A stretch of 64,000 nucleotides of DNA from Candidatus Moraniibacteriota bacterium (GTDB taxonomy: Bacteria; Patescibacteriota; Minisyncoccia; Moranbacterales; GWC2-37-73). The notes under the pieces were generated by a model. That model saw nothing but the letters and a program-made list of their open reading frames with translations. It was not told where the DNA came from and made no database searches. The stretch lies in the NCBI GenBank assembly GCA_035390125.1, contig DAOOTD010000001.1, positions 241,936-305,935 on the forward strand, read 5' to 3'. Shown piece after piece: positions 9,152 through 52,932 of the stretch (position 1 is its first letter; every line of letters starts with the position of its first letter). Position numbers and translations under genes: made by a program.

Positions 9152-9165
9152 TTATTTTATAATTT

Positions 9166-26100: not shown

Positions 26101-26476
26101 CTGAAGAATTTTCTTCGAGATATTTTACACTCGAGACATTAATCATGCCAGCACTCTTGGATTCTTCTTCGATACGATACAATGATTTCAATTCGGCCTC
26201 TTTTATTCTTAGAGATTCTTTAATTTTCTCCTGCTCAGCAATTTCTTTTTCCACTTTGCGTATTTCAATGCCTTTGACAGCCGTCTGATTTATAGAATAA
26301 ACATAGAATAATCCTGAAAATACAGCACATGCAAAAACAATAAACACTGGGTTTATAAATCCCGCTGTGTGTGATTTTAGCGCCTCAATAGGCTGCCAAT
26401 TTGTTTGTATTTTTCTTTTTATTTTTGGTTGCCAATTTAAGGGTTTTTTCCTTATGACAACAGTTCTATTGATCAT
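26063..26476 (-). CDS. ftsL: FtsL-like small bitopic cell-division protein
   Basis: Single TM followed by a coiled coil. Position between rsmH and ftsI. Confidence 0.5.
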   Translation of the reverse strand: MINRTVVIRKKPLNWQPKIKRKIQTNWQPIEALKSHTAGFINPVFIVFACAVFSGLFYVYSINQTAVKGIEIRKVEKEIAEQEKIKESLRIKEAELKSLYRIEEESKSAGMINVSSVKYLEENSSVAYGNDSKGSKN

Positions 26477-26508
26477 TTCTCATGGATCCCCCCAGAGAAA
26501 TAAATGGA

Positions 26509-27435
26509 TTAAATTTTTTCTATCACTCTTAGTTTTGCACTGCGAGCGCGATTATTGATTTTAATCTCGCTATAGCTTGGTGCAATAGGCCTATGATTGA
26601 CTAACCTGGCAATTGGATTGATATGGCATTGGCATACCGGAAATTCCGGCGGGCAAATGCATCCCCTAGCATTTTCCCTGAAAGCATATTTTACCAATGA
26701 ATCCTCACCAGAGTGAAAGGTGATTATTGCAAGCCTTCCTTGTGGCTTTAGCACTTCTATTGCCTGGGAAAGAAACGAATCAAGAGATTCCAACTCACGA
26801 TTCACTTCTATCCTTAGCGCTTGAAATGTTTTTGTTGCATAATGTATTTTCTTCCGTTTATATATATCAGGAACCGAATGCCCTATTATTTCGACAAGTT
26901 CTGATGTCCAGTTTAGCGGTTTTTCTCTGCGCCTAATAACAATATTTCTGGCAATTGAACGGGCATATTTTTCATCGGCTAAATACTTGAGTATTTTTTC
27001 CAGTTCTTTTTCTGTGTAAGTATTCAGAATTTCGGCTGCTGTAATTCCCTTAGTCATATCCATACGCATATCGAGGGCTGAATCGTTTCGGAAACTTATT
27101 CCGCGCTTCGCATCTTCCAGTTGATCAGATGAAATTCCCAAATCTGCCAGAATTGCATCGACTTTTTCTATTTTTAAATTAGCTAAAATATTTTTTAAAT
27201 TCGCAAAATTGTCATTTACCAGGTATATATTTTTCGATTCTTTTATTTCGGCAAACCTTTTTATCGCCTGGATATCCTGATCTATTGCAATCAATATTCC
27301 GCTATCTCCTATTTTCTCAATAATTTTAAAACTATGTCCTCCTCCTCCTAATGTTGCGTCAACTACAATCATTCCTGGTTTTAAATTGAGGGCTTCTATT
27401 GCTTCTTTCAATAAAACTGTCTTATGAATAGGCAT
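26509..27435 (-). CDS. rsmH: 16S rRNA (cytosine1402-N4)-methyltransferase
   Basis: VDATLGGGGHS...ILADLGISSDQLEDAKRGISFRNDSALDMRMD. Confidence 0.9.
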   Translation of the reverse strand: MPIHKTVLLKEAIEALNLKPGMIVVDATLGGGGHSFKIIEKIGDSGILIAIDQDIQAIKRFAEIKESKNIYLVNDNFANLKNILANLKIEKVDAILADLGISSDQLEDAKRGISFRNDSALDMRMDMTKGITAAEILNTYTEKELEKILKYLADEKYARSIARNIVIRRREKPLNWTSELVEIIGHSVPDIYKRKKIHYATKTFQALRIEVNRELESLDSFLSQAIEVLKPQGRLAIITFHSGEDSLVKYAFRENARGCICPPEFPVCQCHINPIARLVNHRPIAPSYSEIKINNRARSAKLRVIEKI

Positions 27436-27437
27436 AT

Positions 27438-27884
27438 TTAGTAGATTCCCAGTTTGCCAAGCTGTTCTGCGATTTCATCGGTATTTTTTTCGGCGCCTGT
27501 TTTATATATCTTCCACTTCTTTTCATCCCAAATTTCCAATCTATTGAAAAGTCCCGCAATCGTAACTGAGCGTCCAAGCCCTGCATATTCTTTAAGATAT
27601 TCCGGCAGTAATACTCTGCCTTGGCTGTCTATGTCACTTTCAATTGCGCCAGCCAGCATTAAACGCACAAAACTTCTGGTAGTTGATTCGCCCATTGGCA
27701 ATGTCCCTAATTTTTCCGCTAAATCTTTCCATACTTTAGCTGGATACACAAATAGGCATTTGTCTAAACCGCGAGTGATTACAACCTTGCCTCCCAATTC
27801 TTTTCTGAATTTTGAAGGAAGCGCTAAGCGCTTTTTTGGATCTATGCTGTGTTGATACTCTCCGATAAACATATTGTTATTCAA
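27438..27884 (-). CDS. mraZ: transcriptional regulator MraZ
   Basis: MFIGEYQHSIDPKKRLALPSKFR plus a second DXXXR repeat. Confidence 0.85.
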   Translation of the reverse strand: MNNNMFIGEYQHSIDPKKRLALPSKFRKELGGKVVITRGLDKCLFVYPAKVWKDLAEKLGTLPMGESTTRSFVRLMLAGAIESDIDSQGRVLLPEYLKEYAGLGRSVTIAGLFNRLEIWDEKKWKIYKTGAEKNTDEIAEQLGKLGIY

Positions 27885-28322: not shown

Positions 28323-29513
28323 TTATTTGTACGATTTATTTTTATTTTTCAGATATGAATAATATTCTTCGTTATTGCTGTTTTTTATTGAATATTTTTC
28401 AATCGCTTTTTTACAAGCTCTTTCGCCAATTTCTTTCCTTAAATTTTCATCAATAACAAGCCTCTCTATTTTTTCAAACCATTCTTTTTCTCCACTCGCA
28501 ACAAAGCCATCAATTCCATCCTTAATTGCTTCTCTGAAAGTCTGAGTTGCTGCTGCTATAGTTGGAATTTTCATTATTCCAGCTTCAAAAAATTTCAGTT
28601 CTGAACGAGCTTCGCAAAACGGATTCCCGATTTCCAGTGGCGCTAAATTAATATCCACATTGGCAATATTGGCAAAATGTTTTTCTCTAGGAACAAAAGA
28701 CAGCCTTATTGTCCTACTGGAAAATTTATTAAGCCCATTCTCTATATCCAGCGGCCCTGCTAAAAATAATTCGACATTTTCATATTTTTCCATGATCTGT
28801 ATCAATGGCCCAGTGATAGTTGCGAAATCTTTATTATGGCTGGATGTTCCGCTGAAATAACCTATCCTAACAGCTTCGTTAGCCTTTAGCTTAGTTAGCT
28901 TTTTAGCTTCAAGGATTCCAGCAGCTATTTCAATATCTTTTTCAGAAAGCTTATTGGAAACAACAAAAACTTTTTTGCCATATTCTTTTATTTTTTCCGC
29001 CAGAAAAACAGTTGAGGTTGTACAAACTTTAACATAAGGATCTCTAAGTATTTCTCCGCCTATTCCATTTTCAAAAAATTTCTTTTCAAATTCATTGGCA
29101 TTTTTGAAAAAGTCCTGCTGTTTGATATATCCGGGATCAAAAAGCAGATCATCAGTTTCAAAAATAATTTCCTTATTTTCTTTCTTAAGCTTCTTTATAA
29201 ATTTTTGGATTTGCGGAATATAGGAAACCTTGTGAAAAACAAAAATGTTGAACTTGTCCGCACAGGACATCAGCATTGGATGTTCCTGGACAACAGAAGA
29301 GCATTTAAGCCCATGTAGACTCAATTCCTCTGCTACATTAAGCACGCGATAACGTGAGCTATCCCCCACTATTCCGCTGGAAATGAACAATACGTCGCCT
29401 GATCCAGCAGGATGCAACATTGAAAAGAAAACCTTTATAATCTTTTTCAGCCCATAAAAAAACCCTTCTTGCCCGAAAATGGCTCTTATTTTTCCTAAAT
29501 ACCTTTTAAGCAT
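28323..29513 (-). CDS. glycosyltransferase, GT4-like (GT-B fold)
   Basis: C-terminal E-x7-E region ([18 protein letters not shown]...DGIDGFVA). Confidence 0.65.
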
Positions 29514-29617
29514 AAGATTTATTCCTTTATAAATTACAGGAATCGCCTTGCAATTTCAAGGCTACCTTTAAACTTTTGGAATGATTCAATTTTACCTTAA
29601 AAATTTTTTAAAATCAA

Positions 29618-29645
29618 AAAGGATGGCAAATCCCATCCTTTTTAT
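29618..29645 (-). terminator. terminator after the CARDB gene
   Basis: AAGGATGG-caaatc-CCATCCTT, followed by a T-run on the minus strand. Confidence 0.5.
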
Positions 29646-29668
29646 TAGCAAGTCTTTTTTATCTTGAG

Positions 29669-30591
29669 TTAATGAATAGGAATTACGGTTTTAGTGGAAA
29701 CATTATTTCCCTCGTTGCTTTCATTAACATCATCATCAGTATCAACAACAACTTTGGTCGCATAAGTTGACCATCCACCATAAGTATACTCGCAAGAAAC
29801 ATCCTTGCTTTCTCCAGCTTTCAATTCATCAATTTTGCCATCACAAGAAGCCGAATAGGCATTTGACCACCATTCCCATTTAAAGGAACCAGCGTTTGTT
29901 TGGCCCTTATTTTTAATGGTAATTTTAACTTTGAATTCTTCCCCCATTACCGGGTCATGATTAAAATCATATTCACTGACAGACAAATCAGCTTTTCCAT
30001 GAATAGGAACAACTTGTTTTTTGGCAACATTATTATTTTCATCGCTTTCATCTACATCATTCTGGGAATCAACAATAGCTTTTGTCGCATAATCTGACCA
30101 GCTTGAATAAGTATAATTGCATTGGACAGTGTTGCTGCCGCCAGCCTGAATGGCTGATACTTTCTTCTTGCATATCTGTTCAGAAGCAGTTGCCCACCAT
30201 TCCCAATAAAATTCTCCTGACGCAGCTTGCCCTTTATTGGCAATTTCCACTATAACAACAAATTCAGATCCCATTTTTGGTTCTTCACTAAAAACATATT
30301 TTTCACGTAGAGATCAGCCTTTTTAACCTCTACAGGTACTGCCGTGGCTGTTCCATTAGCCGGAGGATTTACATTTGGAGTAATTTCCTTTGCAACTTCT
30401 TCATTTGCAGGTGTGTTATTTTTAACAGTTTCATTTTCCTTTTGGGAATTTTTAATCAAGCTATTAACAAAAAGAGTGGCTAATATAATAACTGCTGCAG
30501 ATAAAATAATTATTATAAATATTAAAATTTTCTTTGAATTAGGCGCTTTGCCTGATTCATTATTGATATTGGATACATTTTCTTGTTCCAT
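29669..30591 (-). pseudogene. membrane-anchored surface protein with two CARDB-like domains, interrupted by a 1-nt frameshift in an A5 run (about 30299-30303)
   Basis: ORFs 30250-30591 (TM anchor plus linker, ends ...KADLYVKN) and 29669-30274 (starts ...EKYVFSEEPKMGSEFVVIVEIANKG) together reconstruct a repeat that aligns to the second CARDB repeat (KADLSVSEYDFNHDPVMGEEFKVKITIKNKG). One extra A restores the frame. Confidence 0.6.
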
Positions 30592-30634
30592 ATTTTTATA
30601 ATTTAATATTTAATTTATTCTATTTTAGCTTATC

Positions 30635-31144
30635 TTACTGGGTTTGTCTAATTTTATTTTTCTGCCTCTTGTATAAAAAAATAGCATAAACAATGACTAA
30701 TATGGCTACATTCGGAAAAAATATAATTGGATTGCCCCAGCCGATTCCATCAATCATAAAATCAGATATTGGCCAGAGAAACGGGGTCGGAAAAAAATCA
30801 AAAGAATGGCTGGGAATATCTATTAAAATGTGAAGCCCCCAGGCGCCCAAAATCCAGTATGGTTTTTTGCGTATAAGCCAAACAGCAAAAAATGTCGCAA
30901 AAAAAATAATCAGGCTATGGGTAATGCCATAGAGAATATGCACATACCCTGGGATAAGGCTTTGATCCATATGCCCTTTGGAAAAATCTATTTCTTGAGC
31001 AAATCCCAGTATCCTAGCAGCCATAAAAATTCCAAAAGAAAAAATATCAGGACTTATTCCAATTAAAAAAGCTTTTATATAATCTTTGGCATTTTTTCTG
31101 CCAAAAGCTATGCCCCCGTAAAGACCGTGGGAAATTATATCCAT
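30635..31144 (-). CDS. membrane-bound metal-dependent hydrolase (DUF457/YdjM family)
   Basis: MDIISHGLYG... N-terminus, 4-5 TM helices, conserved His residues. Confidence 0.55.
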   Translation of the reverse strand: MDIISHGLYGGIAFGRKNAKDYIKAFLIGISPDIFSFGIFMAARILGFAQEIDFSKGHMDQSLIPGYVHILYGITHSLIIFFATFFAVWLIRKKPYWILGAWGLHILIDIPSHSFDFFPTPFLWPISDFMIDGIGWGNPIIFFPNVAILVIVYAIFLYKRQKNKIRQTQ

Positions 31145-31164
31145 ATTATTTTTGTGTCCTAAAA

Positions 31165-31929
31165 TTATTTAAGGAGCACTCCCCCATCAGCAACTATAAT
31201 CGATCCTGTCATATATGAAGATGCTTCGCTTGCCAAAAATAAAGCTATTGTTGCCATTTCATCAGGTTCGCCCATTCTTTTCATCGGTATAGACTTGGCA
31301 AAATCACTGGGATCAACTTGGCTGGTTCCTTCTGTTTGCACTCCGCCTGGAGCAATAGCATTAACTCTTATTCCCTTATCAACTAATTCCAGCGCTAAGT
31401 TTTTAGTAAACCCCCATACTCCATGCTTTGAAGCATCATAAGCTGCCAAACCAACCATACTTGGATGCAAGGCATCTATTGAAGCTATATTAATTATATT
31501 TCCTCCACCATTTTTTATCATTATTTTAGCAGCTTCTCTCGAGCACATAAAAACACCGCGAAGATTAACCATCTGAACTTTATCCCATTCTTCCACGCTC
31601 ATATCCATAGCATTAGCAAAAGGGAAAATTCCGGCATTGTTAATCATGATGTCAATTTTTCCAAAGTTTTTTTCAGTTTCATTTATCAGGTTTTTTACAT
31701 CTTCTTCAAGACTAACATCAGTTTTAACAAAAATAACCTTAACTCCAAATTCTTTGGAAACAAGACTGGCTTTTTGATTGCCAGCTTTCTCGTTTATATC
31801 TGCTATAACAACATCTGCTCCTGCTTCAGCAAACCGGCGCACTATTCCATAGCCTATACCCAAGGATCCACCCGTAACAATCACTGATTTGCTTTTAAAA
31901 TCAAAAATTTCTTCAATCTTTTTATTCAT
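31165..31929 (-). CDS. SDR-family oxidoreductase
   Basis: TGGSLGIG Rossmann motif, NNAG, and the catalytic Y-x3-K (YDASKHG). Confidence 0.8.
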   Translation of the reverse strand: MNKKIEEIFDFKSKSVIVTGGSLGIGYGIVRRFAEAGADVVIADINEKAGNQKASLVSKEFGVKVIFVKTDVSLEEDVKNLINETEKNFGKIDIMINNAGIFPFANAMDMSVEEWDKVQMVNLRGVFMCSREAAKIMIKNGGGNIINIASIDALHPSMVGLAAYDASKHGVWGFTKNLALELVDKGIRVNAIAPGGVQTEGTSQVDPSDFAKSIPMKRMGEPDEMATIALFLASEASSYMTGSIIVADGGVLLK

Positions 31930-31993
31930 ATTTTTTAATTATTTAATTTATTATTTTATTTTTTCTGCATTTCCTACAATAATATTTATTTTA

Positions 31994-32680
31994 TCATATC
32001 ACTTCATAAAACACATCCTTTCTTTCAATAATAACTTTCCACTGGTTCTTTTTAGCCACACGATAGAGTTTTTTATTGGGATTAAAACATATGGGCTTGC
32101 TGACTACTTTGAACATCGGAATATCAGACTCGGTATCTCCAACAGCTATGGAATTTTTGATAGTTAATTTTTCTTTTTCTATAACTCTTTGCAGAACTTT
32201 AGCTTTATTGCTTATCATCTCTCTATGCATTATCGCGCCAGTAAATATTCCTTTTTCGTTCACTTCATACATCCTTCCATATGCTTTATTAAAACCCATA
32301 CGTTTACAAAATTCATCCACTATTATTTTAGGAGAATTAGAAATAGCCAACAGAAAATAATCTTTTTTCTTAAGCTCTTGGATTAAATCTCTGGTATATT
32401 GATAAGTCTGGCTTCTTTTAGCAGCTATGACTTTTTTAGAAATTTTTATAAAATCATTATATTTAACTCCTTTTATGTTAAGCTCAAACGCCCTAACCAC
32501 TCTATCTATATATTTTTCATATGAATCTTTCCTGTTAAGCCAGTTTTTGTGCTGTTTAGAATAATATTTTTTAGCAGATGATTTAAACAGCCCAGCCTCA
32601 ATCAATGCTTCAGTTATTTCTATTAAAAGACTAGACCTGAAAATTGTTCCATCTATATCAAATATTGCAATTTTTTTCAT
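31994..32680 (-). CDS. HAD-IB family hydrolase (phosphoserine phosphatase-like)
   Basis: FDIDGTI motif I; GDTESD motif IV. Confidence 0.65.
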   Translation of the reverse strand: MKKIAIFDIDGTIFRSSLLIEITEALIEAGLFKSSAKKYYSKQHKNWLNRKDSYEKYIDRVVRAFELNIKGVKYNDFIKISKKVIAAKRSQTYQYTRDLIQELKKKDYFLLAISNSPKIIVDEFCKRMGFNKAYGRMYEVNEKGIFTGAIMHREMISNKAKVLQRVIEKEKLTIKNSIAVGDTESDIPMFKVVSKPICFNPNKKLYRVAKKNQWKVIIERKDVFYEVI

Positions 32681-32701
32681 ATTTCCATTTTAAATTTTAA
32701 G

Positions 32702-35149
32702 CTATAGGCTTATTTCTACTTTTTCACCATTAACCGCTTCTCCGGAAATTATTTTTTTAGCAATAATTCCTTCAACTGTATCTTCAATATATCTGTTTAC
32801 TGAACGCGCTCCGAAAATTGGATTATACCCTTTTTGGATTATGTCATTAATAACATTTTCACTAAAAGTTATTTCTATATTTTTTTCTTTAGCTACACGA
32901 CGTGCAAATTTATCTAATTGAAGACGTACAACGCTTACTAATTCCCGGCCATTGAGTGGACGGAAAAATATAACGCCATCAAAGCGATTCAAAAATTCGG
33001 TGCGAAATATGTTATTCTCAATTACGTAATCTATGATTGCCTCTTTTATTTCCTCTGCTGGAATATTTTCTTCAACCATTTTTTTAATCAATGATGCACC
33101 CGCATTAGATGTTGCAATAATCATGGTATTAGTAAAATTTATTTTTTCTCCGAAGGCATCTGTAACAAATCCTTCGTCAAGAATTTGAAGAAATATGTCT
33201 AAAATTTCAGGATAAGCTTTTTCTATTTCATCTAAAAGCAATAAAGAATAAGGATTGTCTTTTATTTGCGTAACTAACCTCCCCGGCTGATTAAGCTGAT
33301 TCGATCCCAATAAACGATCGATTGAATTGGGCATTTGAAATTCGCTCATATCTAAGCGAACTATTCTTGATTCATCCCCGAAATAAGCTTTTGCCAGAGC
33401 TTTAGCAGTTTCTGTTTTACCGACTCCAGTCGGTCCGAGAAAAAGAAAGCTTCCTATAGGTTTTTTTGAATTTCCTATTCCACTACGAGATCTTCGAAAA
33501 GCTTCAGCTACATGGTTTATAGCTTCTTCTTGGCCAATAACCTGTCGATGAAGCGTATCTTCAAGGTTTAATAGTTTTTTTCTTTCTTCGCCCTCAACCT
33601 GTCCGTGCTTCACTCCGGTTTTTAACGTCAGATAATCATTGACTGTTTTTTCAGTAATAAATTGTTCATCAGACTTTTTTTCCCAAAACATAAGAACATT
33701 CATTGCCAAATCCAATGCACGTTCAGGCAATGGAAATTCCCAATTATATCTACTACTGTTAGTTATGATTTCCTTTATAGATTTATAGGTAAATATTATC
33801 CTTTTATTTTCATATCTTTGCATTTGAAAAAGCAAAATTGCCGCTGTTTCATCTTCAGATGGCTCACGCATTTCAATAACCTCAAAATATTTTATAATCT
33901 GATCATGTTTCTCAATTAAGTGATGGTATTCTTTAGTGGTTGATGTGGCAATTATTTGAAAAGTTGGAACCTCGAGAAACTCACTAATAACCGCTGAAAT
34001 GTCTGGATGAAAAGTATTAACTTCCTTGCCTATAAAATTTTCCATATTTTCAATAACCAAAACAACATTACCTGCATAACTAGCTTCATGAAAAAGCAAA
34101 CGCATAAAATTCTCTACATCTTCTCCCTTGTTTATAGCATCAGAAATAGCCCGGCCTAAATCCAGCAGAAGTATCCTAATATCCTCTATTTCTTTTTCTT
34201 CATCTATTCGTATATTTCGTGCCAATGAATGAATGAGAGTTTTCTTGCCAACTCCAGAATTACCGACTATTAATACGCAATTCTGATCCGGCCGCTGAAT
34301 AATCATTTTAAGAATTTCATATTCTTCATTCCGTCCAATAAGTTCTGTCTTGCCGTAATCAGTCCAATCGCTTTCTGATAAATCCTTACAATATTTGTCT
34401 AAGTTAACGGTATAACCATAATGCCAATGCATTCCAATTGGCCTTATTTTTTTTAAATTTTCTAAACGCCAAAATCTTCCTGAATTGTTTTTTTTCTCTT
34501 CATCTAAAAACTCATGCCTTATTAAATATTGATAATCTTTTTGCGTAAGCCCTCTGGCTCTAAGAAAATCATCCAATAATTTTTCATCACTCATTATTTC
34601 TTTTGGAAATCTTTTGCCAACTATGCCAAGCCTTCCGCATATCCTTTCAAATGATTTGTGCTTTAAAAATTCATCAGGCCCCATTTCCGTTGCTACAATT
34701 TTTGTGTCATTAAGATAGCAATAAATTGAAAAAATTATCCAACCTAAAACAAAACCGCCTGAAAAAAACGGGTTAATAAGTCCCTTTATTGAGAATGCAA
34801 ATAAAAACAAGAAGAATAACGGGGCGCTGATCCAGATAAAGTTAATTACTATTCCAAAAAATATAACTGCAATAAATAATGCTATTCCAAAACAAATTAT
34901 TACCAAGCGGACTATTATGCCAATGAAGCGAGAAATTATATTCTCAATTATAATCTCAAGTGTCCTAAAGGGATGCAATCCGCGCCAGCTTTGTATAGAA
35001 ACGTCCCGATGCCAAGGATAAACCAACGTTTTTAAAAGTCGGAATATGGAGAAATTCCTAAAAACAAAAAACAGAAAGTTTTTCCAAATTTCCAATAGCT
35101 CCCAAACGCCTTGACTGTAATACCAATAAAAAAAATTAGGCTTTTTCAT
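32702..35149 (-). CDS. membrane-anchored double-AAA+ ATPase of the ClpA/ClpB class (N-terminal multi-TM domain, no M-domain)
   Basis: About 170 aa with 4 or more TM helices. D1 Walker A is GNSGVGKKT. D2 reads LFLGPTGVGKTETAKALA...LLLLDEIEKA...GARSVNRYI (ClpB-like sensor 2). No IGF/LGF loop was seen. Confidence 0.65.
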   Translation of the reverse strand: MKKPNFFYWYYSQGVWELLEIWKNFLFFVFRNFSIFRLLKTLVYPWHRDVSIQSWRGLHPFRTLEIIIENIISRFIGIIVRLVIICFGIALFIAVIFFGIVINFIWISAPLFFLFLFAFSIKGLINPFFSGGFVLGWIIFSIYCYLNDTKIVATEMGPDEFLKHKSFERICGRLGIVGKRFPKEIMSDEKLLDDFLRARGLTQKDYQYLIRHEFLDEEKKNNSGRFWRLENLKKIRPIGMHWHYGYTVNLDKYCKDLSESDWTDYGKTELIGRNEEYEILKMIIQRPDQNCVLIVGNSGVGKKTLIHSLARNIRIDEEKEIEDIRILLLDLGRAISDAINKGEDVENFMRLLFHEASYAGNVVLVIENMENFIGKEVNTFHPDISAVISEFLEVPTFQIIATSTTKEYHHLIEKHDQIIKYFEVIEMREPSEDETAAILLFQMQRYENKRIIFTYKSIKEIITNSSRYNWEFPLPERALDLAMNVLMFWEKKSDEQFITEKTVNDYLTLKTGVKHGQVEGEERKKLLNLEDTLHRQVIGQEEAINHVAEAFRRSRSGIGNSKKPIGSFLFLGPTGVGKTETAKALAKAYFGDESRIVRLDMSEFQMPNSIDRLLGSNQLNQPGRLVTQIKDNPYSLLLLDEIEKAYPEILDIFLQILDEGFVTDAFGEKINFTNTMIIATSNAGASLIKKMVEENIPAEEIKEAIIDYVIENNIFRTEFLNRFDGVIFFRPLNGRELVSVVRLQLDKFARRVAKEKNIEITFSENVINDIIQKGYNPIFGARSVNRYIEDTVEGIIAKKIISGEAVNGEKVEISL

Positions 35150-35206
35150 TGCTAGTTTTTGTTTTGATTTACTTAATTTTACATCATAAAAAATCGCTTT
35201 GCAAAT

Positions 35207-37018
35207 ATGAAAATAACGGGTATAATCGAAACAATGAAAGATTTAAAATTGTCATCAAAAGATTACCAATTTTTTCTTTTTAAGGCCCTGTTTTGGTTAG
35301 GCGCAGCCTGGATTGGTTTCATAGCCGCATTAGGAGGTTTTTTTTATGCGCCTTATTTATGGATTTTGATTGTTATTCTAGGAATCTTTCTGTTTTATTA
35401 TTTTATATTAAAAAATGGATATTCTGTAATTATTTCCCGTGAAATGCTGGCAATAAGCATGATATCAATTCTTACGGTAATCTTATTTTCTTATTTTTCA
35501 ACTCCCACTATTTTTTCAGGCAGGGATCAGGGATCTATTAGCGAAGCTGCTATAAGATTAGTTCAGAATCATACTTTTGAATTTTCAACTCCTGCTAGCA
35601 CGGAATTTTTTAAAATTTATGGACCAGGCCGAGCACTCAATTTTCCTGGTTTTTATTATTCCAATGAAGGTAACCTGACAACTCAATTCCCCTTGGTTTA
35701 CATAGTCTGGCTAGCACTTTTTTATTCTCTTTTTGGAACCATCGGATTCATAGTGGCTAATGCTATTTTGTTTTTTATTTTTATTCTTTCTTTTTATTTA
35801 CTTGCCAGGCTATTCTTAAGATTTCCCTATGCTTTATTAACACTAACTTTTACCTTAACTTCTTTTTCTTTCATGTGGTTCTCAAAATTTACGCTCAGTG
35901 AAAACATGGCATTGTCTCTTTTATGGCTATCCATATTGTCATTGATGCTTTTTCTGAAAAACTTTAGAAGATTTTATTTTTACGTATTCCTTATGTCTTC
36001 AACACTTCTTTTTTTCACACGCATTGAAGGAATCGCTATTATGATTGTTTCTGCAATCATAATCCTATACAATAGTGCTGTCAGAAAATTCATAAAAGAA
36101 AAAATTTTCCTGAGGTTCTTTCTGCCAGTAATATTTTTTACCATAATTTTTATAGCAAATATTTTCAGGGATTTCAGTTTTTATCACGAGGTTGCAAAAG
36201 TATTTTTATCCCCTTTTATTTACTCTCAAGACAGATATGCCGACGTACTTAAAGATATCGTTTTGCCAGCTTTTTATATTGAAAAGTTGTTCTTAATATA
36301 CGGATTAATAGGTTTTTTTATAGTCGGAGCTATTGGCATATTTTTTTTCATTTGGAAAAAAGAGTATTATAAGCTTATCCCTCTTTTTATAGCCCTGCCT
36401 ACTTTTATATATTTCTTTGATTCTCATATAACTAATGATAACCCTTGGATGCTCAGGCGATTTATGTTCTCTCTTTTGCCTATCGGAATTTTCTATTCTG
36501 GACTAATTTTGGGACGAGGCTTGGAAAATATGAAAAGTAAAAAAATCTTTATTTTTTCAGGCATTATTTCTATATTGCTTATTGTCAACAATTTTCCACC
36601 ATTTTTAAAATATCTAACTTTTTCAGAGAATCAAGGACTTGATAAGCAGACAGCAACATTCGCAAAAAATTTTTCCTCTCATGATCTCATCCTTATGGAC
36701 CGTGAAACAACTACTGATGGTTTAAATATGATTAGCGGACCCCTTAGTTCAATTTATGGGAAAAATGCAGTATATTTTTTCAATATAAATGATCTGGCAA
36801 AATTAGACCTAAAAAAATTCAGTAACACATATCTTGTTGCTCCAAATAAACAGGTGCCTTATTATTTAAATAGTTCAATAGCCAATAGGCTTGTACCAGA
36901 AAATGAATATAATTTTACTTTTTTAAAATTAAAAGCAAATCAGAATGATGGCGTCAAATGGCCAGAAAAAGAAGAGATTTCGGCAAGCGGTAAAATATTT
37001 AAAATTAAAAACAATTAA
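35207..37018 (+). CDS. polytopic membrane glycosyltransferase, GT-C fold (ArnT/PMT-like)
   Basis: More than 12 TM segments. The first external loop SGRDQGSISEAAIRL resembles the GT-C D-E-x-x-Y-A-E-I-A loop motif. Confidence 0.45.
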   Translation: MKITGIIETMKDLKLSSKDYQFFLFKALFWLGAAWIGFIAALGGFFYAPYLWILIVILGIFLFYYFILKNGYSVIISREMLAISMISILTVILFSYFSTPTIFSGRDQGSISEAAIRLVQNHTFEFSTPASTEFFKIYGPGRALNFPGFYYSNEGNLTTQFPLVYIVWLALFYSLFGTIGFIVANAILFFIFILSFYLLARLFLRFPYALLTLTFTLTSFSFMWFSKFTLSENMALSLLWLSILSLMLFLKNFRRFYFYVFLMSSTLLFFTRIEGIAIMIVSAIIILYNSAVRKFIKEKIFLRFFLPVIFFTIIFIANIFRDFSFYHEVAKVFLSPFIYSQDRYADVLKDIVLPAFYIEKLFLIYGLIGFFIVGAIGIFFFIWKKEYYKLIPLFIALPTFIYFFDSHITNDNPWMLRRFMFSLLPIGIFYSGLILGRGLENMKSKKIFIFSGIISILLIVNNFPPFLKYLTFSENQGLDKQTATFAKNFSSHDLILMDRETTTDGLNMISGPLSSIYGKNAVYFFNINDLAKLDLKKFSNTYLVAPNKQVPYYLNSSIANRLVPENEYNFTFLKLKANQNDGVKWPEKEEISASGKIFKIKNN

Positions 37019-37023
37019 ATATT

Positions 37024-38355
37024 ATGTTTGATTTAACTGAAGAAATAAAACTTGAAAATTATTTGCGCAAAAAATATTTGATTGCTAAGTTTTTCTTATA
37101 TTTGTTTTTTCTGATAGGCACACTTTTTATATTGAACCGAATTATTTTTCCTCTCATATCATTTTCTTTATCTTTTGACAATATAAACTCTCCTAAAAAT
37201 ACGCTGGACTTATCCAGTACAATGTCCCAAGCTGAAGCAATAAAAAAAGGCTTTGTCAAAAATAATGAGGATATGATCTTTACTGCAAGTCCCTTAGGAA
37301 ACTTCTCTTATTCCACTATTAAATTAAAGACAAGCAAGGATTCTGAAAATATCGAAGGAACTTCCATAAAGATACGCAGATCTTATGAAGCTTTTTTCTA
37401 TCCAACTGGTGATCCGGTTGGTTTCAGAAATGGAACTCTTCTTTTTGCAAACGGTTCTTATTATATAATTTCCGGTGATGCTCTCAGAAAATTTTCAAAT
37501 AATAATATAGTCGAACAGCTTGGTTATTCAAAAGACTCTTTTCTGAATGTTTCTTTAGATGATTTAAAATACAACAAAAATGGAGCTGATATAACTGATG
37601 CAAATATTTACCCAGATGACACTTTTTTTAATATTGGCGACACTTACTATCAACTAAAAAACCGCCAGCTTTTCCCTTTCGTAAGTGCCGGGGCCTTTTT
37701 GTCAAAATTCGAATCCGGACAAGCAATTATAAAAAATGATGATTTTTTAAACCGATATAAGATATCAGAAACATACCTTGGATTCACGGATGGCACATTA
37801 GCATCTTTGGCTCCATCGGTTTTTTTCCTGAGCGAAGAAAAAAGCTATCCTATATCAAATGCAGAAACTTTTGTCAAAAAGGGGTTCAATTGGGACGATG
37901 TTATTCAGATTAATTCGGAGGAACTCAGTATTTATAAAAAACAAAAACAATTCACTTATAACCAGCCACATCCGGATGGAACTTTATTTTTGGATAGGAA
38001 GACAAATACATATTTCATCATTAAGGATAAACAAAAGCGTCCCATAGAAAGTTTAGCTGTTGCCAAAACATATTCAAAACAGAAACCAGTAATAGTAGAT
38101 TCCGAAGAAAGCGAAACTATTGTTTCATGCCAATTGAAAAAAGTATTTTTTCCAAAAAACACATACGAATGTGATGCTATGCTTAATTCTATGAATAATT
38201 TTATTGGTATTGATTTTCAGATTGATTTAAAATTTGCAAATAATGCAAAAATAAATAATGCCAGCATAACCTTCTTTACAGCAAAGAATTTTGATAATTT
38301 CATGGCTTTTCTCTCGGGAACAAAAACGAGTCTAATAATTAATTATACTAAATAG
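37024..38355 (+). CDS. hypothetical N-terminally anchored extracytoplasmic protein (443 aa)
   Basis: Single N-terminal TM. No family recognised. Translationally coupled to neighbours. Confidence 0.4.
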   Translation: MFDLTEEIKLENYLRKKYLIAKFFLYLFFLIGTLFILNRIIFPLISFSLSFDNINSPKNTLDLSSTMSQAEAIKKGFVKNNEDMIFTASPLGNFSYSTIKLKTSKDSENIEGTSIKIRRSYEAFFYPTGDPVGFRNGTLLFANGSYYIISGDALRKFSNNNIVEQLGYSKDSFLNVSLDDLKYNKNGADITDANIYPDDTFFNIGDTYYQLKNRQLFPFVSAGAFLSKFESGQAIIKNDDFLNRYKISETYLGFTDGTLASLAPSVFFLSEEKSYPISNAETFVKKGFNWDDVIQINSEELSIYKKQKQFTYNQPHPDGTLFLDRKTNTYFIIKDKQKRPIESLAVAKTYSKQKPVIVDSEESETIVSCQLKKVFFPKNTYECDAMLNSMNNFIGIDFQIDLKFANNAKINNASITFFTAKNFDNFMAFLSGTKTSLIINYTK

Positions 38356-38360
38356 CCATA

Positions 38361-38765
38361 ATGTATATTCCAAAATTACCAGTACTAAATAAGAATTACG
38401 TGCTTATAGTATATAAACTTCTACATGATGCTTTATTCCTTTTGCTTATGTTTTTTATTTTTATGTTAATAGCTGAAGGGGCATTGCCTGGAGTTGTTTC
38501 TTCTCATATAAGCTTTATACTCGTCATTCTTCCTATATTATTAATTTTTATATTTATAATTCTCATAGGAAAAAAGTTTGACCTGACTTATACCTCTCCT
38601 GCAATCAAAAAAAACAGGTTATTGCCTGTTCTAATTCTGCTAACTTTTCTATTATTAGGAAATTCCCTTTTGAAATTTGCCTTTTGGGAAAATATAATTA
38701 TTGTAATTTCTACTTTATTTTTGTTTTTACTTTTATACCAAATAATTTTCGAGCCTAAAGATTAG
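38361..38765 (+). CDS. small integral membrane protein (134 aa)
   Basis: 3-4 hydrophobic helices. Confidence 0.35.
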   Translation: MYIPKLPVLNKNYVLIVYKLLHDALFLLLMFFIFMLIAEGALPGVVSSHISFILVILPILLIFIFIILIGKKFDLTYTSPAIKKNRLLPVLILLTFLLLGNSLLKFAFWENIIIVISTLFLFLLLYQIIFEPKD

Positions 38766-39880
38766 GCTGAAATTAAAATATCGAGCGTTTCTTTGGCACA
38801 TTTTCCCCACGAAAAGCTTTTTACATGTTCAGTCCCTTTTTGTATCAATTTATCTTCAAGTGATTTTTCTTGCATAACTTTATCTATACAATCAGCTAAA
38901 TCCTTGCTATTTTCTGTTTGAAAATAAAGCACCGCATCTCCACCGACTTCAGTTAAACTTGAATTTTTAGCACAAATTACAGGAACACCAGAAGCCATAG
39001 ATTCCAATATAGGTATCCCGAAACCTTCATAAAGTGACGGAAAAATAAATAATTTTGCATTCCGATAAATTGCGGATAATTTTTCGAATTCAAGATTTCC
39101 AGTGATAATTATGTCTTTTTTGAATCTGCTGTTATTTATTCTTTTAATTATATTATCGCTTTTCCAAGCAGGAGAACCAGCAATAACTAGCTTTAAATCA
39201 ATATTGCCTTCTTTTATTTTTTCAAAAGCCTCAATAAGAACTCCAAGATTTTTTCTTGGCTGAATTGCGCCGACGTATAATAAATAAGATTTAGCTTTTA
39301 GACAATACTTTTTCAGTATTATTTCTGAGTTTTCTTGAGAAATATCCTTTTGGAATAATTCACTGTCAAATCCATGATAAACAACGGAAATTTTATCATT
39401 TTTAATTTCAGGATAAAATTTTAAAATATCATTTTTAGTCGAATGTGAAACAGCGATAATATGATCAGCATTTTTAATAGCCATATTACTTAATTTATTA
39501 AGCTTAAAAAGATCTTTATTAGTGAAATATTTCGGAAATATTTTAAAGGCTAAATCGTGAATAGTAACTATGACCTTTGTATTCTTATTTCGGAGTAAAG
39601 GTATATTATGTACTGGCATCCAAAGGATATCAGGTCTATCTATAAAAACTTCAAAAGCAAAACGAGTCTGCGTCCATAAAAATGGAAAAGGAATTTTTCT
39701 TATTGAATAATTATTAAAATCTGGAGGAGTTAGGTGATGATTGAAAAAATCTCTGTGATAAATAAAAAATTTATCGGTTTTATCAAGATTACCGAAATTT
39801 TTGAGCATATTAAAAAGATAAACTCTGGTGCCATCTATCCTGTTATGATCCAAATCTGCCGCATGAATTGCAATCTTCAT
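38762..39880 (-). CDS. glycosyltransferase, GT4 family
   Basis: EGFGIPILESMASGVPVICAKNSSLTEVGGDAV, the GT4 nucleotide-sugar binding region. Confidence 0.75.
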   Translation of the reverse strand: MKIAIHAADLDHNRIDGTRVYLFNMLKNFGNLDKTDKFFIYHRDFFNHHLTPPDFNNYSIRKIPFPFLWTQTRFAFEVFIDRPDILWMPVHNIPLLRNKNTKVIVTIHDLAFKIFPKYFTNKDLFKLNKLSNMAIKNADHIIAVSHSTKNDILKFYPEIKNDKISVVYHGFDSELFQKDISQENSEIILKKYCLKAKSYLLYVGAIQPRKNLGVLIEAFEKIKEGNIDLKLVIAGSPAWKSDNIIKRINNSRFKKDIIITGNLEFEKLSAIYRNAKLFIFPSLYEGFGIPILESMASGVPVICAKNSSLTEVGGDAVLYFQTENSKDLADCIDKVMQEKSLEDKLIQKGTEHVKSFSWGKCAKETLDILISA

Positions 39881-39884: not shown

Positions 39885-40619
39885 TTATTTTATTTCTAAT
39901 TTCTTTAAAAATTCTTCTAGCTCTTTTCCTTGTATTTTTCTATAATGTCCTAAACCTAAATTGCCTAATTTGATATTCATTATTCTGATTCTTCTTAAAT
40001 CAGTTATTCCCCACCCGAGATTATCGCACATCCTCCTGATTTGATGTTTCTTGCCTTCTGTCAGAATTATATTGAAAGTAAAATCATCTTTTTTATTGAT
40101 AATGCACGGCTTGGTTTTAAAATCTTCCAGCTGAACTCCGACACTCATAATTTTCAAAAAGATATTTTTAATAGGCTTATTTACCTTAATTACATATTCT
40201 TTTTCATGATTTCTGTTTGGATTTAAAAGTTTATCAGTAATGCGTCCATCATTAGAAAGGATAATAAGACCATGAGAAATTTTATCTAGGCGTCCGATGG
40301 GAAAAATGTCCTCTGGAAATTTACCACCATCTTTTATCTTTTTACCGGTCTGATTGTCTTGATTGGTTAATTCTCCCTTAGGCTTATTATAAGCTAAATA
40401 AACATATTCTTTAACCTTTCTATAAACTTTTAAATCTACTTTGACTTTGTCATTTTCATAGACTTTATCACCTATCCTGGCTTTTTTGCCGTTTATTTCA
40501 ACTATTCCTTTCGTAATAAATCCATCCGCTTCCCTGCGACTACAATAATTATGGAGTGCCAAATAGCGGTTAATGCGTATTGGATAGTCTATTTTATTTA
40601 TTTGTTTTGTATTATTCAT
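39885..40619 (-). CDS. rluB: rRNA pseudouridine synthase (RsuA/RluB family; S4 domain plus catalytic domain)
   Basis: S4-like N-terminus; GRLDKISHGLIILSNDG catalytic Asp motif. Confidence 0.8.
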   Translation of the reverse strand: MNNTKQINKIDYPIRINRYLALHNYCSRREADGFITKGIVEINGKKARIGDKVYENDKVKVDLKVYRKVKEYVYLAYNKPKGELTNQDNQTGKKIKDGGKFPEDIFPIGRLDKISHGLIILSNDGRITDKLLNPNRNHEKEYVIKVNKPIKNIFLKIMSVGVQLEDFKTKPCIINKKDDFTFNIILTEGKKHQIRRMCDNLGWGITDLRRIRIMNIKLGNLGLGHYRKIQGKELEEFLKKLEIK

Positions 40620-40661
40620 TTATAAAGCTTATCCTATTTTAAATGATTTAACAAGAAAATC

Positions 40662-40689
40662 TTGATTTTCTCAATATTTCTGATATACT
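40662..40689 (+). promoter_or_regulatory. candidate promoter for tRNA-Gln (TTGATT-16-TATACT)
   Basis: Hexamers seen 36 nt upstream of the tRNA 5' end. Confidence 0.35.
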
Positions 40690-40725
40690 TTATTTTGTTT
40701 GATACATGCATTTTTCAAGATATTT

Positions 40726-40796
40726 TCCGAGGTCGTCTAATGGTAGGACAACAGGTTCTGGTCCTGTTTATTGGAGTTCGAATCTCTACCTCGGAA
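40726..40796 (+). tRNA. tRNA-Gln (anticodon CUG)
   Basis: TCCGAGGTCGTCTAATGGTAGGACAACAGGTTCTGGTCCTGTTTATTGGAGTTCGAATCTCTACCTCGGAA. Cloverleaf with U1-A72, typical of tRNA-Gln. Confidence 0.7.
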
Positions 40797-40843
40797 CAAA
40801 AGCAATAAAGTACTTTATAAAATTAAATTATGGAGGCAGGACT

Positions 40844-41158
40844 ATGACGAATGATGAAGAAAAAAAATATGCTAAAATCCGTAGCCTCTGTGACATAATA
40901 GGAGGCTTAAATTCAACTGAGAAACAACGTCAAAGAGCATGGGAACAGCTCATGCCTATGGCAAGTAGCACTACGCTAAGCACCTTAATCGCAGCTAAAT
41001 ATTCTTGGCTAGAATTTACAGATGAATATAAAGAGAAAGCATGGCGAGAATTAAAAAAACGAAATATAGAAAACGATGAGATTAATTTGCATTATTTAGC
41101 GGTCAACGCTCCAGAACCATGGTGTGAAGAAGCCAGAGAATTAGAAGAAAAAACATAA
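40844..41158 (+). CDS. hypothetical protein (104 aa)
   Basis: GGAGG RBS 6 nt before the ATG at 40844. The longer tracked ORF (40706-) would overlap the tRNA and is rejected. Confidence 0.45.
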   Translation: MTNDEEKKYAKIRSLCDIIGGLNSTEKQRQRAWEQLMPMASSTTLSTLIAAKYSWLEFTDEYKEKAWRELKKRNIENDEINLHYLAVNAPEPWCEEARELEEKT

Positions 41159-41186
41159 GAAAAATATTATTAATAAACGAAAAATA

Positions 41187-41220
41187 AAATCCCCAAGCCA
41201 TAATGGTAAAGGGATTTTTT
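41187..41220. terminator. bidirectional terminator between 40844-41158 (+) and ftsX (-)
   Basis: AAATCCCC...GGGATTT hairpin with T-runs on both strands. Confidence 0.5.
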
Positions 41221-41241
41221 AATTATATCGTTCTGAAATCT

Positions 41242-42153
41242 CTATACTTTCAAATATCTTTTAATCGCAATAAGTCCGCTGATGGTTCCGAGAGCTATGC
41301 CTGAAAAGATAAGTGAAATAAAGATAATAAAGAAATTATCTAAATAAAACGAGAAAATGTTCTCTCCAGAAATGCTGTTCTGGGTAATCGGCGCCAAAAA
41401 TTTTGAAGTTATACCAAGAAAAATCATAACTAAAAATGCAGATGCTACTCCATAGAAAATACCTTCAAAAACAAAAGGCATACGAATATAAACATTTGAA
41501 GCTCCGACAAGACGCATAACTTCAAACTCACTTTTGTGTGCATACATAGTAAGTCTGATAGCATTAAATGTTATCATTATACCGATAAAAATAAAGACTA
41601 AACCGAGAGTAAAGCCGATTTTTTCTACAAGTTTAACAATTGAGTTAAGCCGCTGAACAGCTTCTTTATGTTCTTCAAAGTCGATATTACTTATACTATC
41701 TGCAAAACTAGACTTACTGATTGCTTGTGTAATTATACCGTACTGTTCAGGGTTTTTAGCTTTTATAACTAAAGAAGATAGCAATGGATTGTCTCCTATC
41801 AACTCAAGTGCACGCGAAATGGAATCACTATTGTTTGTGATTTTCTTGAAATTTTCTAATGCTTGTTCCTTAGTAACATAATCTATTGATTTTATTTCAT
41901 CATATACAACCAGCTTATTTTTTATATCCAATATTGTATTTTCCTCAATATCTGAATTGAAATACACACTGACGCTTAAATCATCCTGTATGTTTTTTAA
42001 AATGATATTTGTAGTCACGCCTAAAATAAAAGTAACACTTATCACATATAGGGATATTGCCAAAACACTAACGGTTGCAAAACTTAGCCATCCGTTACGA
42101 CGAAAATTATCAAGTCCTTCAAAAAATGTGCGTTTTAATTTTATTAATTTCAT
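41242..42153 (-). CDS. ftsX: cell-division ABC permease-like protein FtsX
   Basis: 4-TM FtsX topology with a large first extracellular loop. Downstream of ftsE. Confidence 0.75.
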   Translation of the reverse strand: MKLIKLKRTFFEGLDNFRRNGWLSFATVSVLAISLYVISVTFILGVTTNIILKNIQDDLSVSVYFNSDIEENTILDIKNKLVVYDEIKSIDYVTKEQALENFKKITNNSDSISRALELIGDNPLLSSLVIKAKNPEQYGIITQAISKSSFADSISNIDFEEHKEAVQRLNSIVKLVEKIGFTLGLVFIFIGIMITFNAIRLTMYAHKSEFEVMRLVGASNVYIRMPFVFEGIFYGVASAFLVMIFLGITSKFLAPITQNSISGENIFSFYLDNFFIIFISLIFSGIALGTISGLIAIKRYLKV

Positions 42154-42207
42154 AATTCTGTCTTCTTTTTAATTTTTTGTTTTTAAATCTTATAAATCTA
42201 GCAAAAA

Positions 42208-50865: not shown

Positions 50866-50866
50866 A

Positions 50867-52108: not shown

Positions 52109-52109
52109 A

Positions 52110-52862
52110 TTATTTCAATAATGCTCCTTCTCCATCTGCAATTAATCTGTCTTTTACCGGATCATCAGCTATAATCTGGCCATCTTTTACATAGATAATG
52201 CGTTTGGCGTGTTTGGCAGTATAAGTTTCGTGGGTAACTAAAATAATAGTATGCCCGGAATTATTTAAATCCTGCAAAATTTTCATAACCGCTATTCCTG
52301 ATTTTGAATCCAAATTTCCAGTCGGCTCATCGGCAAAAATAATTTCCGGATCATTAACTAAAGCCCTGGCAATGGCAACACGTTGTTTTTCTCCACCAGA
52401 AAGTTGATTGGATAAATATTTTATCCTATGTTCCATGCCCACAGATTTAAGGGCTTTTTCTACTTTTCCTCTGTTATGTGTTTCAATATGCTCTTCATCA
52501 TAAAGAAGCGGCAGTTCAGTATTTTCATAGACTGTCGTCCTCGGCAAAAGATTAAAAGATTGAAATACAAATCCGATTTTTTTATTGCGCAATTTCGCTA
52601 ATTCATCGTCTGTATAATCATTGATATTTTTACCTTCAAAAAGATAAGTTCCGTCAGTTGCGCGATCAAGCATCCCGAGAATCTGCATCAATGTAGATTT
52701 CCCTGATCCTGAAGGACCCATAATGGAAACGAATTCGCCTTTTTCAATGCTAAAAGTCATCCCACACATAGCTTTGGTTTTCACGCCTTCGTTTTCGTAT
52801 GTTTTGCAAAGGTTTTCAACTTTGATTAGGGATGTTGACATTTTGATTATTTTGTAGCACAA
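52110..52862 (-). CDS. ABC transporter ATP-binding protein (MacB/LolD-type)
   Basis: GPSGSGKST; [15 protein letters not shown]. The probable start is [11 protein letters not shown]. Confidence 0.85.
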
Positions 52863-52932
52863 TTAAGCATTAGCATAAATACTTTAAAAAAATAATTTAA
52901 CGGCTCAATGAAGCCAGAGGAGGATAGAAATT

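Follow-up and report, generated by a model that had tools for sequence, protein, structure and literature searches.

A conserved five-gene core around a predicted GT-C glycosyltransferase in a composite locus of a Candidatus Moraniibacteriota bacterium, with a possible role in envelope glycopolymer assembly

Here, we describe the region 28323-39880 of a 64-kb stretch of DNA from a Candidatus Moraniibacteriota bacterium (the whole stretch that was analysed is referred to as the window). The region is an eleven-gene locus, at the centre of which lies a gene for a divergent, polytopic protein of 603 amino acids (aa) with a predicted GT-C glycosyltransferase (GT) fold (35207-37018, plus strand). 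On balance, we favour the reading that the region is a composite consisting of a glycan-assembly core, a clade-specific AAA+ protein and a strain-specific four-gene insert, and that the core assembles or decorates an envelope glycopolymer. The core has five genes, i.e. an operon for the GT-C protein and two partner proteins, p443 (37024-38355, plus strand) and p134 (38361-38765, plus strand), a converging gene for a GT4 enzyme of the GT-B fold (38762-39880, minus strand), and a gene for a second, divergent GT-B transferase (28323-29513, minus strand).

An earlier reading of the same DNA, made from the sequence alone and referred to here as the sequence-only reading, had treated the locus as a single unit for cell-envelope glycosylation, and had named missing synteny elsewhere as a ground against it. 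All open reading frames (ORFs) that it listed exist at the positions given. In part, however, the missing synteny is what we found, because only five genes travel together. A role in making a cell-envelope glycopolymer is plausible for part of the region, in view of the polysaccharide genes that surround the core in relatives.

Bacteria of the candidate phyla radiation (CPR; Patescibacteria) are uncultured episymbionts in which the envelope mediates attachment to the host. To our knowledge, almost nothing is known about how these bacteria make their wall glycans, and a literature search for Moranbacteria or Patescibacteria together with GT-C, glycosyltransferase or membrane ClpB returned nothing relevant.

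Results

Conservation of the core in related loci

Related loci were recruited by similarity to the GT-C protein and compared by tblastn, all-against-all clustering, phmmer and hidden Markov models (HMMs). The synteny sample comprised 80 loci from a one-genome-per-species collection, two of which are from one metagenome-assembled genome (MAG), and six metagenomic loci; six of the fetched loci carry Pfam-annotated genes. Counts are given over 82 related loci, nearly all of which are from different species, while the denominators 67 and 64 are the numbers of loci with enough flanking DNA for the comparison in question.

In the window, gaps of 5 bp separate the genes for the GT-C protein, p443 and p134, and the GT4 gene overlaps the p134 gene by 4 bp. 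The p443 gene directly follows the GT-C gene in 62 of 67 loci and p134 is present in the same 62 loci, a count that includes tblastn matches in L033 and L070, which were missed by the ORF-based HMM search. Both genes are missing in the same five loci (L064, L065, L075, L082 and L029), and the identical presence and absence of the three genes holds down to ~38% identity. In L064, L065, L075 and L082, but not in L029, the GT4 gene directly abuts the GT-C gene. Because GT4 is kept next to the GT-C gene where p443 and p134 have been lost, we conclude that the GT-C/GT4 pair is the most persistent element. Overall, a convergent GT4 gene is found on the opposite strand within 3 kb downstream of the GT-C gene in 60 of 67 loci, and a divergent GT-B gene within 7 kb upstream of it in 44 of 64 loci, at a distance that varies from 0.1 to 6.5 kb.

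Adjacency could also be inherited gene order in a streamlined genome, the transferases working in separate pathways without forming a functional unit. In line with this, the region lies between housekeeping blocks, i.e. the division and cell wall (dcw) genes mraZ, mraW and a gene for a penicillin-binding protein (PBP) on one side (24139-27884), and rluB, the tRNA-Gln gene and ftsEX on the other side (39885-42936). Moreover, the GT4 gene appears to be co-transcribed with rluB (4-bp gap), the divergent GT-B gene changes its distance as described, and the AAA+ gene shows that unrelated genes can persist inside the cluster. By contrast, the 5-bp gaps and the shared presence and absence of the three operon genes in the 67 loci, the convergent GT4 gene that keeps its place beside the GT-C gene despite the loss of p443 and p134 in some loci, and the recurrence of glycan genes while the flanking genes change all argue for a functional unit. 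We consider it improbable that there is none.

Around the core, relatives carry genes for an NAD-epimerase/dehydratase (37 of 53 loci), DUF4012 (34/53), a nucleotidyltransferase (NTP_transferase; 20/53), RmlD (17/53), an ABC-2 permease (17/53), a GT2 enzyme at most 10 kb from the GT-C gene (10/53) and a second GT-C protein (8/53); genes for a dTDP-sugar isomerase, ABC-2/Wzt, Wzy_C and LytR_cpsA_psr (LCP) proteins recur as well. DUF4012 has been tied to clusters for capsular polysaccharides and exopolysaccharides, and is over-represented among CPR and Gram-positive bacteria (PMC6744442). Typically, the gene order is ABC-2 permease, a small gene, NAD-epimerase, divergent GT-B, DUF4012, second GT4 and, in one clade, AAA+, followed by GT-C, p443, p134, convergent GT4, nucleotidyltransferases, RmlD, epimerase and dTDP-sugar isomerase, with the three genes of the GT-C operon on the strand opposite to all others. 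In the window, the minus strand carries nearly all genes; the three operon genes (35207-38765) are among the very few on the plus strand, and a strand count bore out what the sequence-only reading had remarked for the GT-C gene.

None of the ABC-2, epimerase, NTP_transferase, RmlD, DUF4012 and GT2 genes was detected in the 64-kb window by tblastn and Pfam scans; in the case of GT2, tblastn with the GT2 sequences of related loci and Pfam scans of 48 ORFs gave nothing. Similarly, rmlABCD, an ABC-2 permease/ATPase and rhamnosyltransferases were not found in the window. We conclude that the window holds a reduced version of the relatives' cluster. The epimerase/dehydratase, the rhamnose genes, the ABC-2 exporter, GT2 and DUF4012 in relatives favour assembly of a cell-wall glycopolymer over glycosylation of the CARDB-domain protein encoded in the region, and we read the region as a trimmed glycan cluster rather than a surface-protein glycosylation unit. 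Finally, homologues of the region's proteins are all from Moranbacteria-like Patescibacteria, and p443 has a 100% identical counterpart in a 'Candidatus Moranbacteria bacterium' MAG (P0121). From all named loci and hits, the cluster looks confined to Moranbacteria-like Patescibacteria.

The GT-C protein

The 603-aa protein has no match in Pfam, NCBIfam or PDB sequences, either by phmmer or with a 31-sequence profile, and matches neither PMT_2 (PF13231) nor Glyco_transf_22 (PF03901) even at E<=1. A hydropathy scan gives many hydrophobic segments. In the AlphaFold (AF2) model (pLDDT 86, pTM 0.88), the protein has ~13 membrane helices, a first outside loop with two short helices, and a C-terminal soluble domain (residues 478-603). 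When this model was compared with the PDB by Foldseek, the 24 best matches were all GT-C enzymes (probability 0.94-1.0), with ALG12 as the top match (E=6e-7, TM-score 0.50), and PglB, STT3, DPY19, ArnT, ALG9, Pmt4, AftD and Pmt2 among the further ones. Based on this model, the protein belongs to the GT-C superfamily at the level of the fold, in agreement with the sequence-only reading.

The family comprises 258 clusters at 50% identity (E<=1e-30). Among 31 members, eight have weak matches to PMT_2 (best 1.2e-5) and five have weak matches to Glyco_transf_22 (best 1.5e-3). PMT_2 is a broad GT-C model, and the relatives' matches fall below its cutoff. Invariant in the family alignment are G105-R-D-Q-G109, E232-N233, R272/E274 and R417-R418. 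The G105-R-D107-Q-G109 motif is found where the first of the two short helices begins in the loop that follows the third helix, and the conserved acidic residue of the first extracytoplasmic loop by which GT-C enzymes are recognised (modified DXD) is present as D107. The invariance of D107, R272 and R417/R418 fits the catalytic acid and the phosphate binders of GT-C enzymes, and we infer that D107 is the catalytic acid and that R106, R272 and R417/R418 bind phosphate.

The operon partners p443 and p134

The gene at 37024-38355, listed in the sequence-only reading as an anchored unknown, encodes a 443-aa protein with one N-terminal transmembrane helix and no known family; in addition, p443 has conserved cysteines. 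Neither a full-length profile nor a single-repeat profile found anything in PDB sequences or Pfam, and, judged by its sequence, p443 represents a new family. The p443 model (pLDDT 90) consists of the transmembrane helix, four tandem ~60-aa beta/alpha repeats and a beta-sandwich that resembles carbohydrate-binding modules at the level of the fold. By Foldseek, the ten best matches are all EccB of type VII secretion (E=2e-6), and the next match is at E=0.2. EccB1 likewise combines a transmembrane helix with four repeats and a beta core; these repeats are similar to PlyCB, a phage protein that binds the cell wall (PMC4769845).

These ten matches, together with the membrane-anchored, unfoldase-like AAA+ protein encoded by the divergent neighbour of the operon in one clade, raise the alternative that p443 is a true EccB and that the operon encodes a secretion or envelope-spanning machine with the Hsp100-like ATPase as its motor. 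However, the rigid-body TM-score of p443 against EccB is only 0.13, and the module order is core-R1-R2-R3-R4-core in p443 versus R1-core-R2-R3-core-R4 in EccB1. Moreover, none of 35 p443 members matches the EccB Pfam family, and genes for EccC/FtsK-type proteins, EccD/YukD and mycosin were not found in the annotated neighbourhoods. Finally, the AAA+ gene is missing from about two thirds of the loci, and the operon partner of p443 is clearly a GT-C enzyme. A secretion machine is therefore a very improbable explanation. Based on the low TM-score, the different module order, the lack of sequence similarity and the lack of genes for a type VII secretion system (T7SS) nearby, we read the likeness between p443 and EccB as a shared repeat fold and not as EccB membership. 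The EccB/PlyCB-like repeats and the sandwich resembling carbohydrate-binding modules of the model make p443 a candidate wall-glycan binder, i.e. it probably binds wall glycan. A single p443 member matched Wzz (E=0.01), which we treated as noise.

The third gene of the operon encodes p134, a 134-aa protein with four hydrophobic segments, predicted to be transmembrane helices, and a conserved motif AExxLPGxxSS; its description as a small membrane protein was correct. At E<=0.1, neither p134 nor its 32 orthologues match GtrA (PF04138) or Wzx, and among the 33 p134 members there was no convincing match to an EamA/SMR-type or other Pfam family. From the size of p134 and its co-inheritance with the GT-C protein, our guess is that it acts as a flippase or as an activator/stabiliser subunit.

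The two GT-B transferases and a putative priming enzyme

The 372-aa protein encoded at 38762-39880 is a canonical GT4 enzyme, as had been proposed: it matches Glycos_transf_1 (120 bits) and Glyco_transf_4 (53 bits), both above cutoff, and has the EX7E motif at E285-E293. Its best PDB relatives are retaining GT4 enzymes of the MshA, GlgM and BshA types, and it reaches no NCBIfam equivalog. The 396-aa protein encoded at 28323-29513 had also been called a GT4 enzyme. As a GT-B enzyme it is supported by its orthologues, 35 of 35 of which match Glycos_transf_1 (best 2e-14). The protein itself has only borderline matches in the C-terminal GT-B part (Glyco_trans_1_4, 27.6 bits versus a cutoff of 27; Glycos_transf_1, 26.3 bits versus 26.4), its profile aligns only to the C-terminal ~80 residues of GT4 structures in the PDB, and EX7E was not found at the homologous site. 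We describe it as a divergent, weakly GT1/GT4-like GT-B transferase. In relatives, the gene of its orthologue usually adjoins DUF4012; in the window, a terminator-like hairpin (28143-28118) lies 3' of the gene.

The core joins one GT-C protein in strict linkage with two GT-B enzymes and contains no GT2. This would also suit a core that makes a membrane-anchored lipoglycan or glycolipid, with the GT-B enzymes acting on an inner-face lipid and the GT-C protein extending the product outside with sugars from polyprenyl-phosphate donors, following the logic of phosphatidylinositol mannosides, lipomannan and lipoarabinomannan (PIM/LM/LAM) or of the lipoteichoic acid (LTA) anchor. Moreover, the GT4 enzyme has a weak likeness to PimA (marginal, 28 bits), diacylglycerol glucosyltransferases and LTA-anchor glycosyltransferases, and the best fold matches of the GT-C protein are ALG12 and ALG9, mannosyltransferases that depend on dolichyl-phosphate-mannose (Dol-P-Man). 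Mycobacterial GT-C mannosyltransferases share the Dol-P-Man-type donor class with ALG12 and ALG9. However, all sequence similarities to lipid-type glycosyltransferases are far below the family cutoffs, genes for Rml, ABC-2 and LCP proteins near the core in relatives speak for a polysaccharide attached to the wall, and we found no lipid-specific feature. We give a lipoglycan or glycolipid product a fairly small, although real, chance.

The sequence-only reading had placed the priming sugar-phosphate transferase outside the region, and this was supported: the gene at 4003-5418 (minus strand) encodes a 471-aa polyprenyl-phosphate sugar-phosphate transferase of the WbaP/CpsE type (Bac_transf, 215 bits; CoA_binding_3, 29 bits). 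Between this gene and the near end of the region lie 23 kb, and its distance to the GT-C gene is ~30 kb. The protein is a possible initiating enzyme for the core, and the link between the two is putative. Separately, we observed that this gene and an RNase P RNA gene (5441-5793) are embedded in a full rod-shape set (1096-10275) in this CPR genome, which comprises RodA/FtsW-like, PBP2-like, MreC, MreB and probably MreD (7824-8339) proteins.

The strain-specific insert

A variable slot separates the divergent GT-B gene from the AAA+/GT-C genes (28323-35149 in the window; also in L007, L001, L003 and L008). In the window, the slot carries an insert of four genes, all on the minus strand. The first gene (29669-30591) encodes a membrane-anchored protein with two CARDB domains (115 bits, above cutoff). 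Loss of one base from an A-run (A5 at 30299-30303) divides the gene into two ORFs: the CARDB domains are encoded in the ORF 29669-30274, and the transmembrane anchor in the upstream ORF 30250-30591. In L087, in which the GT-C protein is 94% identical, the run is A6 and the CARDB ORF is intact with 307 aa. The frameshift may reflect a misassembly, slippage or a pseudogene of recent origin. The sequence-only reading was right about the domain of this surface protein, and the coordinates of the gene have to be extended to the whole frameshifted stretch.

The second gene (30635-31144) encodes a 169-aa membrane protein, the YdjM/DUF457 family of which was recovered at 29.0 bits (PF04307), exactly the cutoff. 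The third gene (31165-31929) encodes a 254-aa short-chain dehydrogenase/reductase (SDR). While the SDR family was confirmed (adh_short_C2, 228 bits), the protein is not an extended nucleotide-sugar SDR but a classical one of the FabG/glucose-1-dehydrogenase type, and it matches the glucose 1-dehydrogenase subfamily NF005559 at 237.5 bits versus a cutoff of 215. The fourth gene (31994-32680) encodes a 228-aa HAD-IB phosphatase-like hydrolase, as previously assigned (TIGR01490, 115 bits versus a cutoff of 98). By analogy with DprE2 and its phosphatase, the SDR and the HAD protein could have nucleotide or polyprenyl sugars as substrates; we rejected this possibility because the SDR is classical and both genes are missing in relatives.

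In a phmmer search for these passenger genes (E<=1e-3), CARDB and YdjM were found in none of the 82 related loci, the SDR had one weak homologue, and HAD-IB was found in one locus. Besides the window, HAD-IB was found only in L087 and L007, and the set of four only in L087. In L007, the slot holds the HAD gene (76% identical), two unknown genes and DUF4012; in most relatives, it holds DUF4012, often with a second GT4 gene. A composition scan gave no anomaly across the insert. In total, we conclude that the CARDB, YdjM, SDR and HAD-IB genes are strain-specific passengers in a variable slot.

These counts bear on the idea, put forward in the sequence-only reading, that the whole locus serves O-glycosylation of surface proteins and that the GT-C protein modifies the adjacent CARDB protein. 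Some GT-C families (PMT, PglB and PglL) glycosylate proteins, the GT-C gene is near the gene for an anchored CARDB protein, and eight of the 31 family members have the weak PMT_2 match. However, because CARDB is absent from all 82 loci with the GT-C core, co-occurrence gives no support for the CARDB protein as a substrate. Moreover, the CARDB gene is frameshifted in the window, the slot has DUF4012 instead in most relatives, the neighbours of the core in relatives are polysaccharide and not glycoprotein genes, and the PMT_2 matches are to a broad model and below its cutoff. No transferase matches a characterised pathway above a curated cutoff, and protein O-glycosylation is neither shown nor favoured. 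Altogether, we regard modification of the CARDB protein by the GT-C protein as unlikely; the GT-C protein may nevertheless glycosylate a different protein, for example a pilin or an S-layer protein.

The AAA+ protein

Divergent from the GT-C gene, the gene at 32702-35149 (minus strand) encodes an 815-aa membrane-anchored, Hsp100/ClpB-like double AAA+ ATPase (AAA_2, 152 bits; ClpB_D2-small, 68 bits). The protein has a hydrophobic block at residues 66-146, i.e. N-terminal transmembrane segments in place of Clp_N, and lacks the long middle domain. Its two AAA+ modules do not both have canonical Walker A and B motifs: those of D2 are canonical (GPTGVGKT and LLLLDEIEKA), while D1 is degenerate, with GVGKKT as Walker A (versus GxxGxGK[ST]) and VLVIEN as Walker B (IEN replaces DE). 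The D1 Walker positions are incompletely conserved among 25 orthologues. The protein scores far short of every NCBIfam equivalog cutoff, those of ClpA, ClpB and ClpV included, a search for homologues of its N-terminal 270 aa gave five fragments only, and a literature search for a membrane-anchored ClpB/Hsp100 protein with a degenerate first ring found nothing. The AAA+ gene is present at most 500 bp upstream of the GT-C gene in 22 of 64 loci, all in one clade. Thus, while the description as a membrane AAA+ ATPase was accurate, the protein is a clade-specific neighbour outside the universal core.

Surroundings of the region

The window has a G+C content of ~33%. A promoter scan was near chance, with 57 promoter-like sites versus 62 expected, as was a terminator scan, with 14 terminator-like sites versus 7.8 ± 3.2 (at or near chance). 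Next to the region, a 150-aa ORF (40706-41158, plus strand) overlaps the tRNA-Gln(CTG) gene (40726-40797), and at least the 5' part of this ORF is therefore non-coding. Further away, 49609-54208 encodes a MacB-type ABC system with two MacB_PCD/FtsX permeases, an ATPase and an HlyD-family adaptor; such a system is notable in this organism, which is thought to be single-membraned. Two large minus-strand ORFs, 17558-18817 (419 aa) and 58791-59981 (396 aa), have no Pfam match.

Discussion

If the core assembles or decorates an envelope glycopolymer, as we favour, nucleotide sugars would be the substrates with which the cytoplasmic GT-B enzymes make or lengthen a glycan on the inner membrane face, this glycan being linked to polyprenyl phosphate (or to a lipid). 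After export, the GT-C protein would move a sugar from a polyprenyl-phosphate-linked donor onto the wall glycopolymer at the outer face. Anchored beside the GT-C protein, p443 may hold the acceptor glycan or the wall via its predicted repeats and sandwich, and p134 might be an obligatory small membrane subunit, which we guess to be a flippase or an activator.

Several points weigh against this scheme. Genes for a GT2 enzyme, a GtrA/Wzx flippase, an ABC-2 exporter and an LCP ligase as well as the rml genes are not within the 64-kb window, and because these genes for donor synthesis, flipping, export and ligation are missing, the pathway cannot be reconstructed from the window. No transferase of the core reaches the curated NCBIfam cutoff of a characterised pathway, the donor and the acceptor are only putative, and the role of p134 is a guess. 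Moreover, gene-order inertia in small CPR genomes can cause adjacency to overstate functional linkage. Finally, the loci were recruited by similarity to the GT-C protein, and the comparison is silent on genomes without it.

The analysis defines a lineage-wide GT-C family with two unannotated obligate partners and two linked GT-B enzymes, and separates this core from passenger genes that a reading of one sequence would lump in with it. It opens no new biological principle; it yields defined proteins for which complexes can be predicted, heterologous expression attempted and binding assayed, and it would change the annotation of a 'hypothetical protein' to a GT-C transferase and that of p443 to a candidate wall-binding partner. 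More speculatively, and with considerable doubt on our side, the GT-C protein, p443 and p134 might form an undescribed three-subunit machine for extracytoplasmic glycosyl transfer in Moranbacteria-like bacteria. In such a machine, p443 would dock the GT-C protein onto the wall glycopolymer, the four-helix protein would replace a GtrA/Wzx/GacJ-type protein, and the partner transferases would be GT-B and not GT-A enzymes; one clade would have recruited a membrane Hsp100 protein with a dead first ATPase ring.

Individual proteins and the core as a whole resemble known systems to different extents. The AAA+ protein shares with the Hsp100 proteins ClpB and ClpA the two AAA+ modules, the ClpB_D2-small domain and a D2 module that is about as similar to the ClpB D2 as Hsp100 proteins are among themselves (339 bits). 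It differs from them in the transmembrane segments that replace Clp_N, the missing long middle domain, the degenerate Walker A and B motifs of D1 and scores below the equivalog cutoffs. Similarly, p443 has an N-terminal transmembrane helix followed by four beta/alpha repeats of ~55-60 aa and a beta core, and conserved cysteines, as in the EccB/PlyCB repeat architecture, and it differs from EccB in module order, in its TM-score of 0.13, in having no sequence similarity and in the lack of T7SS genes nearby.

In the mycobacterial PIM/LM/LAM pathway, the GT4 enzymes PimA and PimB' work with the GT-C enzymes PimE, MptA and MptB. The core is like this pathway in having two cytoplasmic GT4-type enzymes and an outside-acting GT-C protein, the fold matches of which include polyprenyl-phosphate-mannose-dependent enzymes. 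By contrast, the similarity to PimA is marginal, there are no inositol or lipid genes, and the genes around the core in relatives are more in keeping with a polysaccharide of the wall. Gtr-type systems (GtrA/GtrB/GtrC; CsbB/GtcA/YfhO) and ArnT with ArnE/F pair a GT-C enzyme with a small membrane protein of ~4 transmembrane helices. The core has this combination as well, p134 being within the range of 110-140 aa; however, p134 has no GtrA or EamA/SMR match in its 33 members, there is no adjacent GT2 gene of the GtrB/ArnC type, and the core has an extra, EccB-like partner.

Multicomponent GT-C systems decorate rhamnose-rich wall polysaccharides, i.e. GacI/J/K/L in S. pyogenes and WpsI/WpsH/WpsJ in L. 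lactis (PMC9574508). In these systems as in the core, a polytopic GT-C protein without sequence similarity to other GT-C enzymes is encoded together with small membrane proteins in a polysaccharide cluster, and the relatives' cluster likewise holds rml genes, an ABC-2 exporter and GT-B/GT-A transferases. Moreover, WpsH, which has a large outside domain and is found beside WpsI, parallels p443. By contrast, the core and the window have no GT-A synthase and no GtrA/Wzx, the fixed partners in the core are two GT-B enzymes, p443 and p134 are not recognisable homologues of GacJ, GacK, WpsH or GtrA, and the host is a CPR bacterium. Among known systems, these GT-C systems of streptococci and lactococci are the closest to the core. 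Because it has neither the defining GT-A synthase for sugar-lipids nor a GtrA/Wzx flippase, we conclude that the core is not a member of them.

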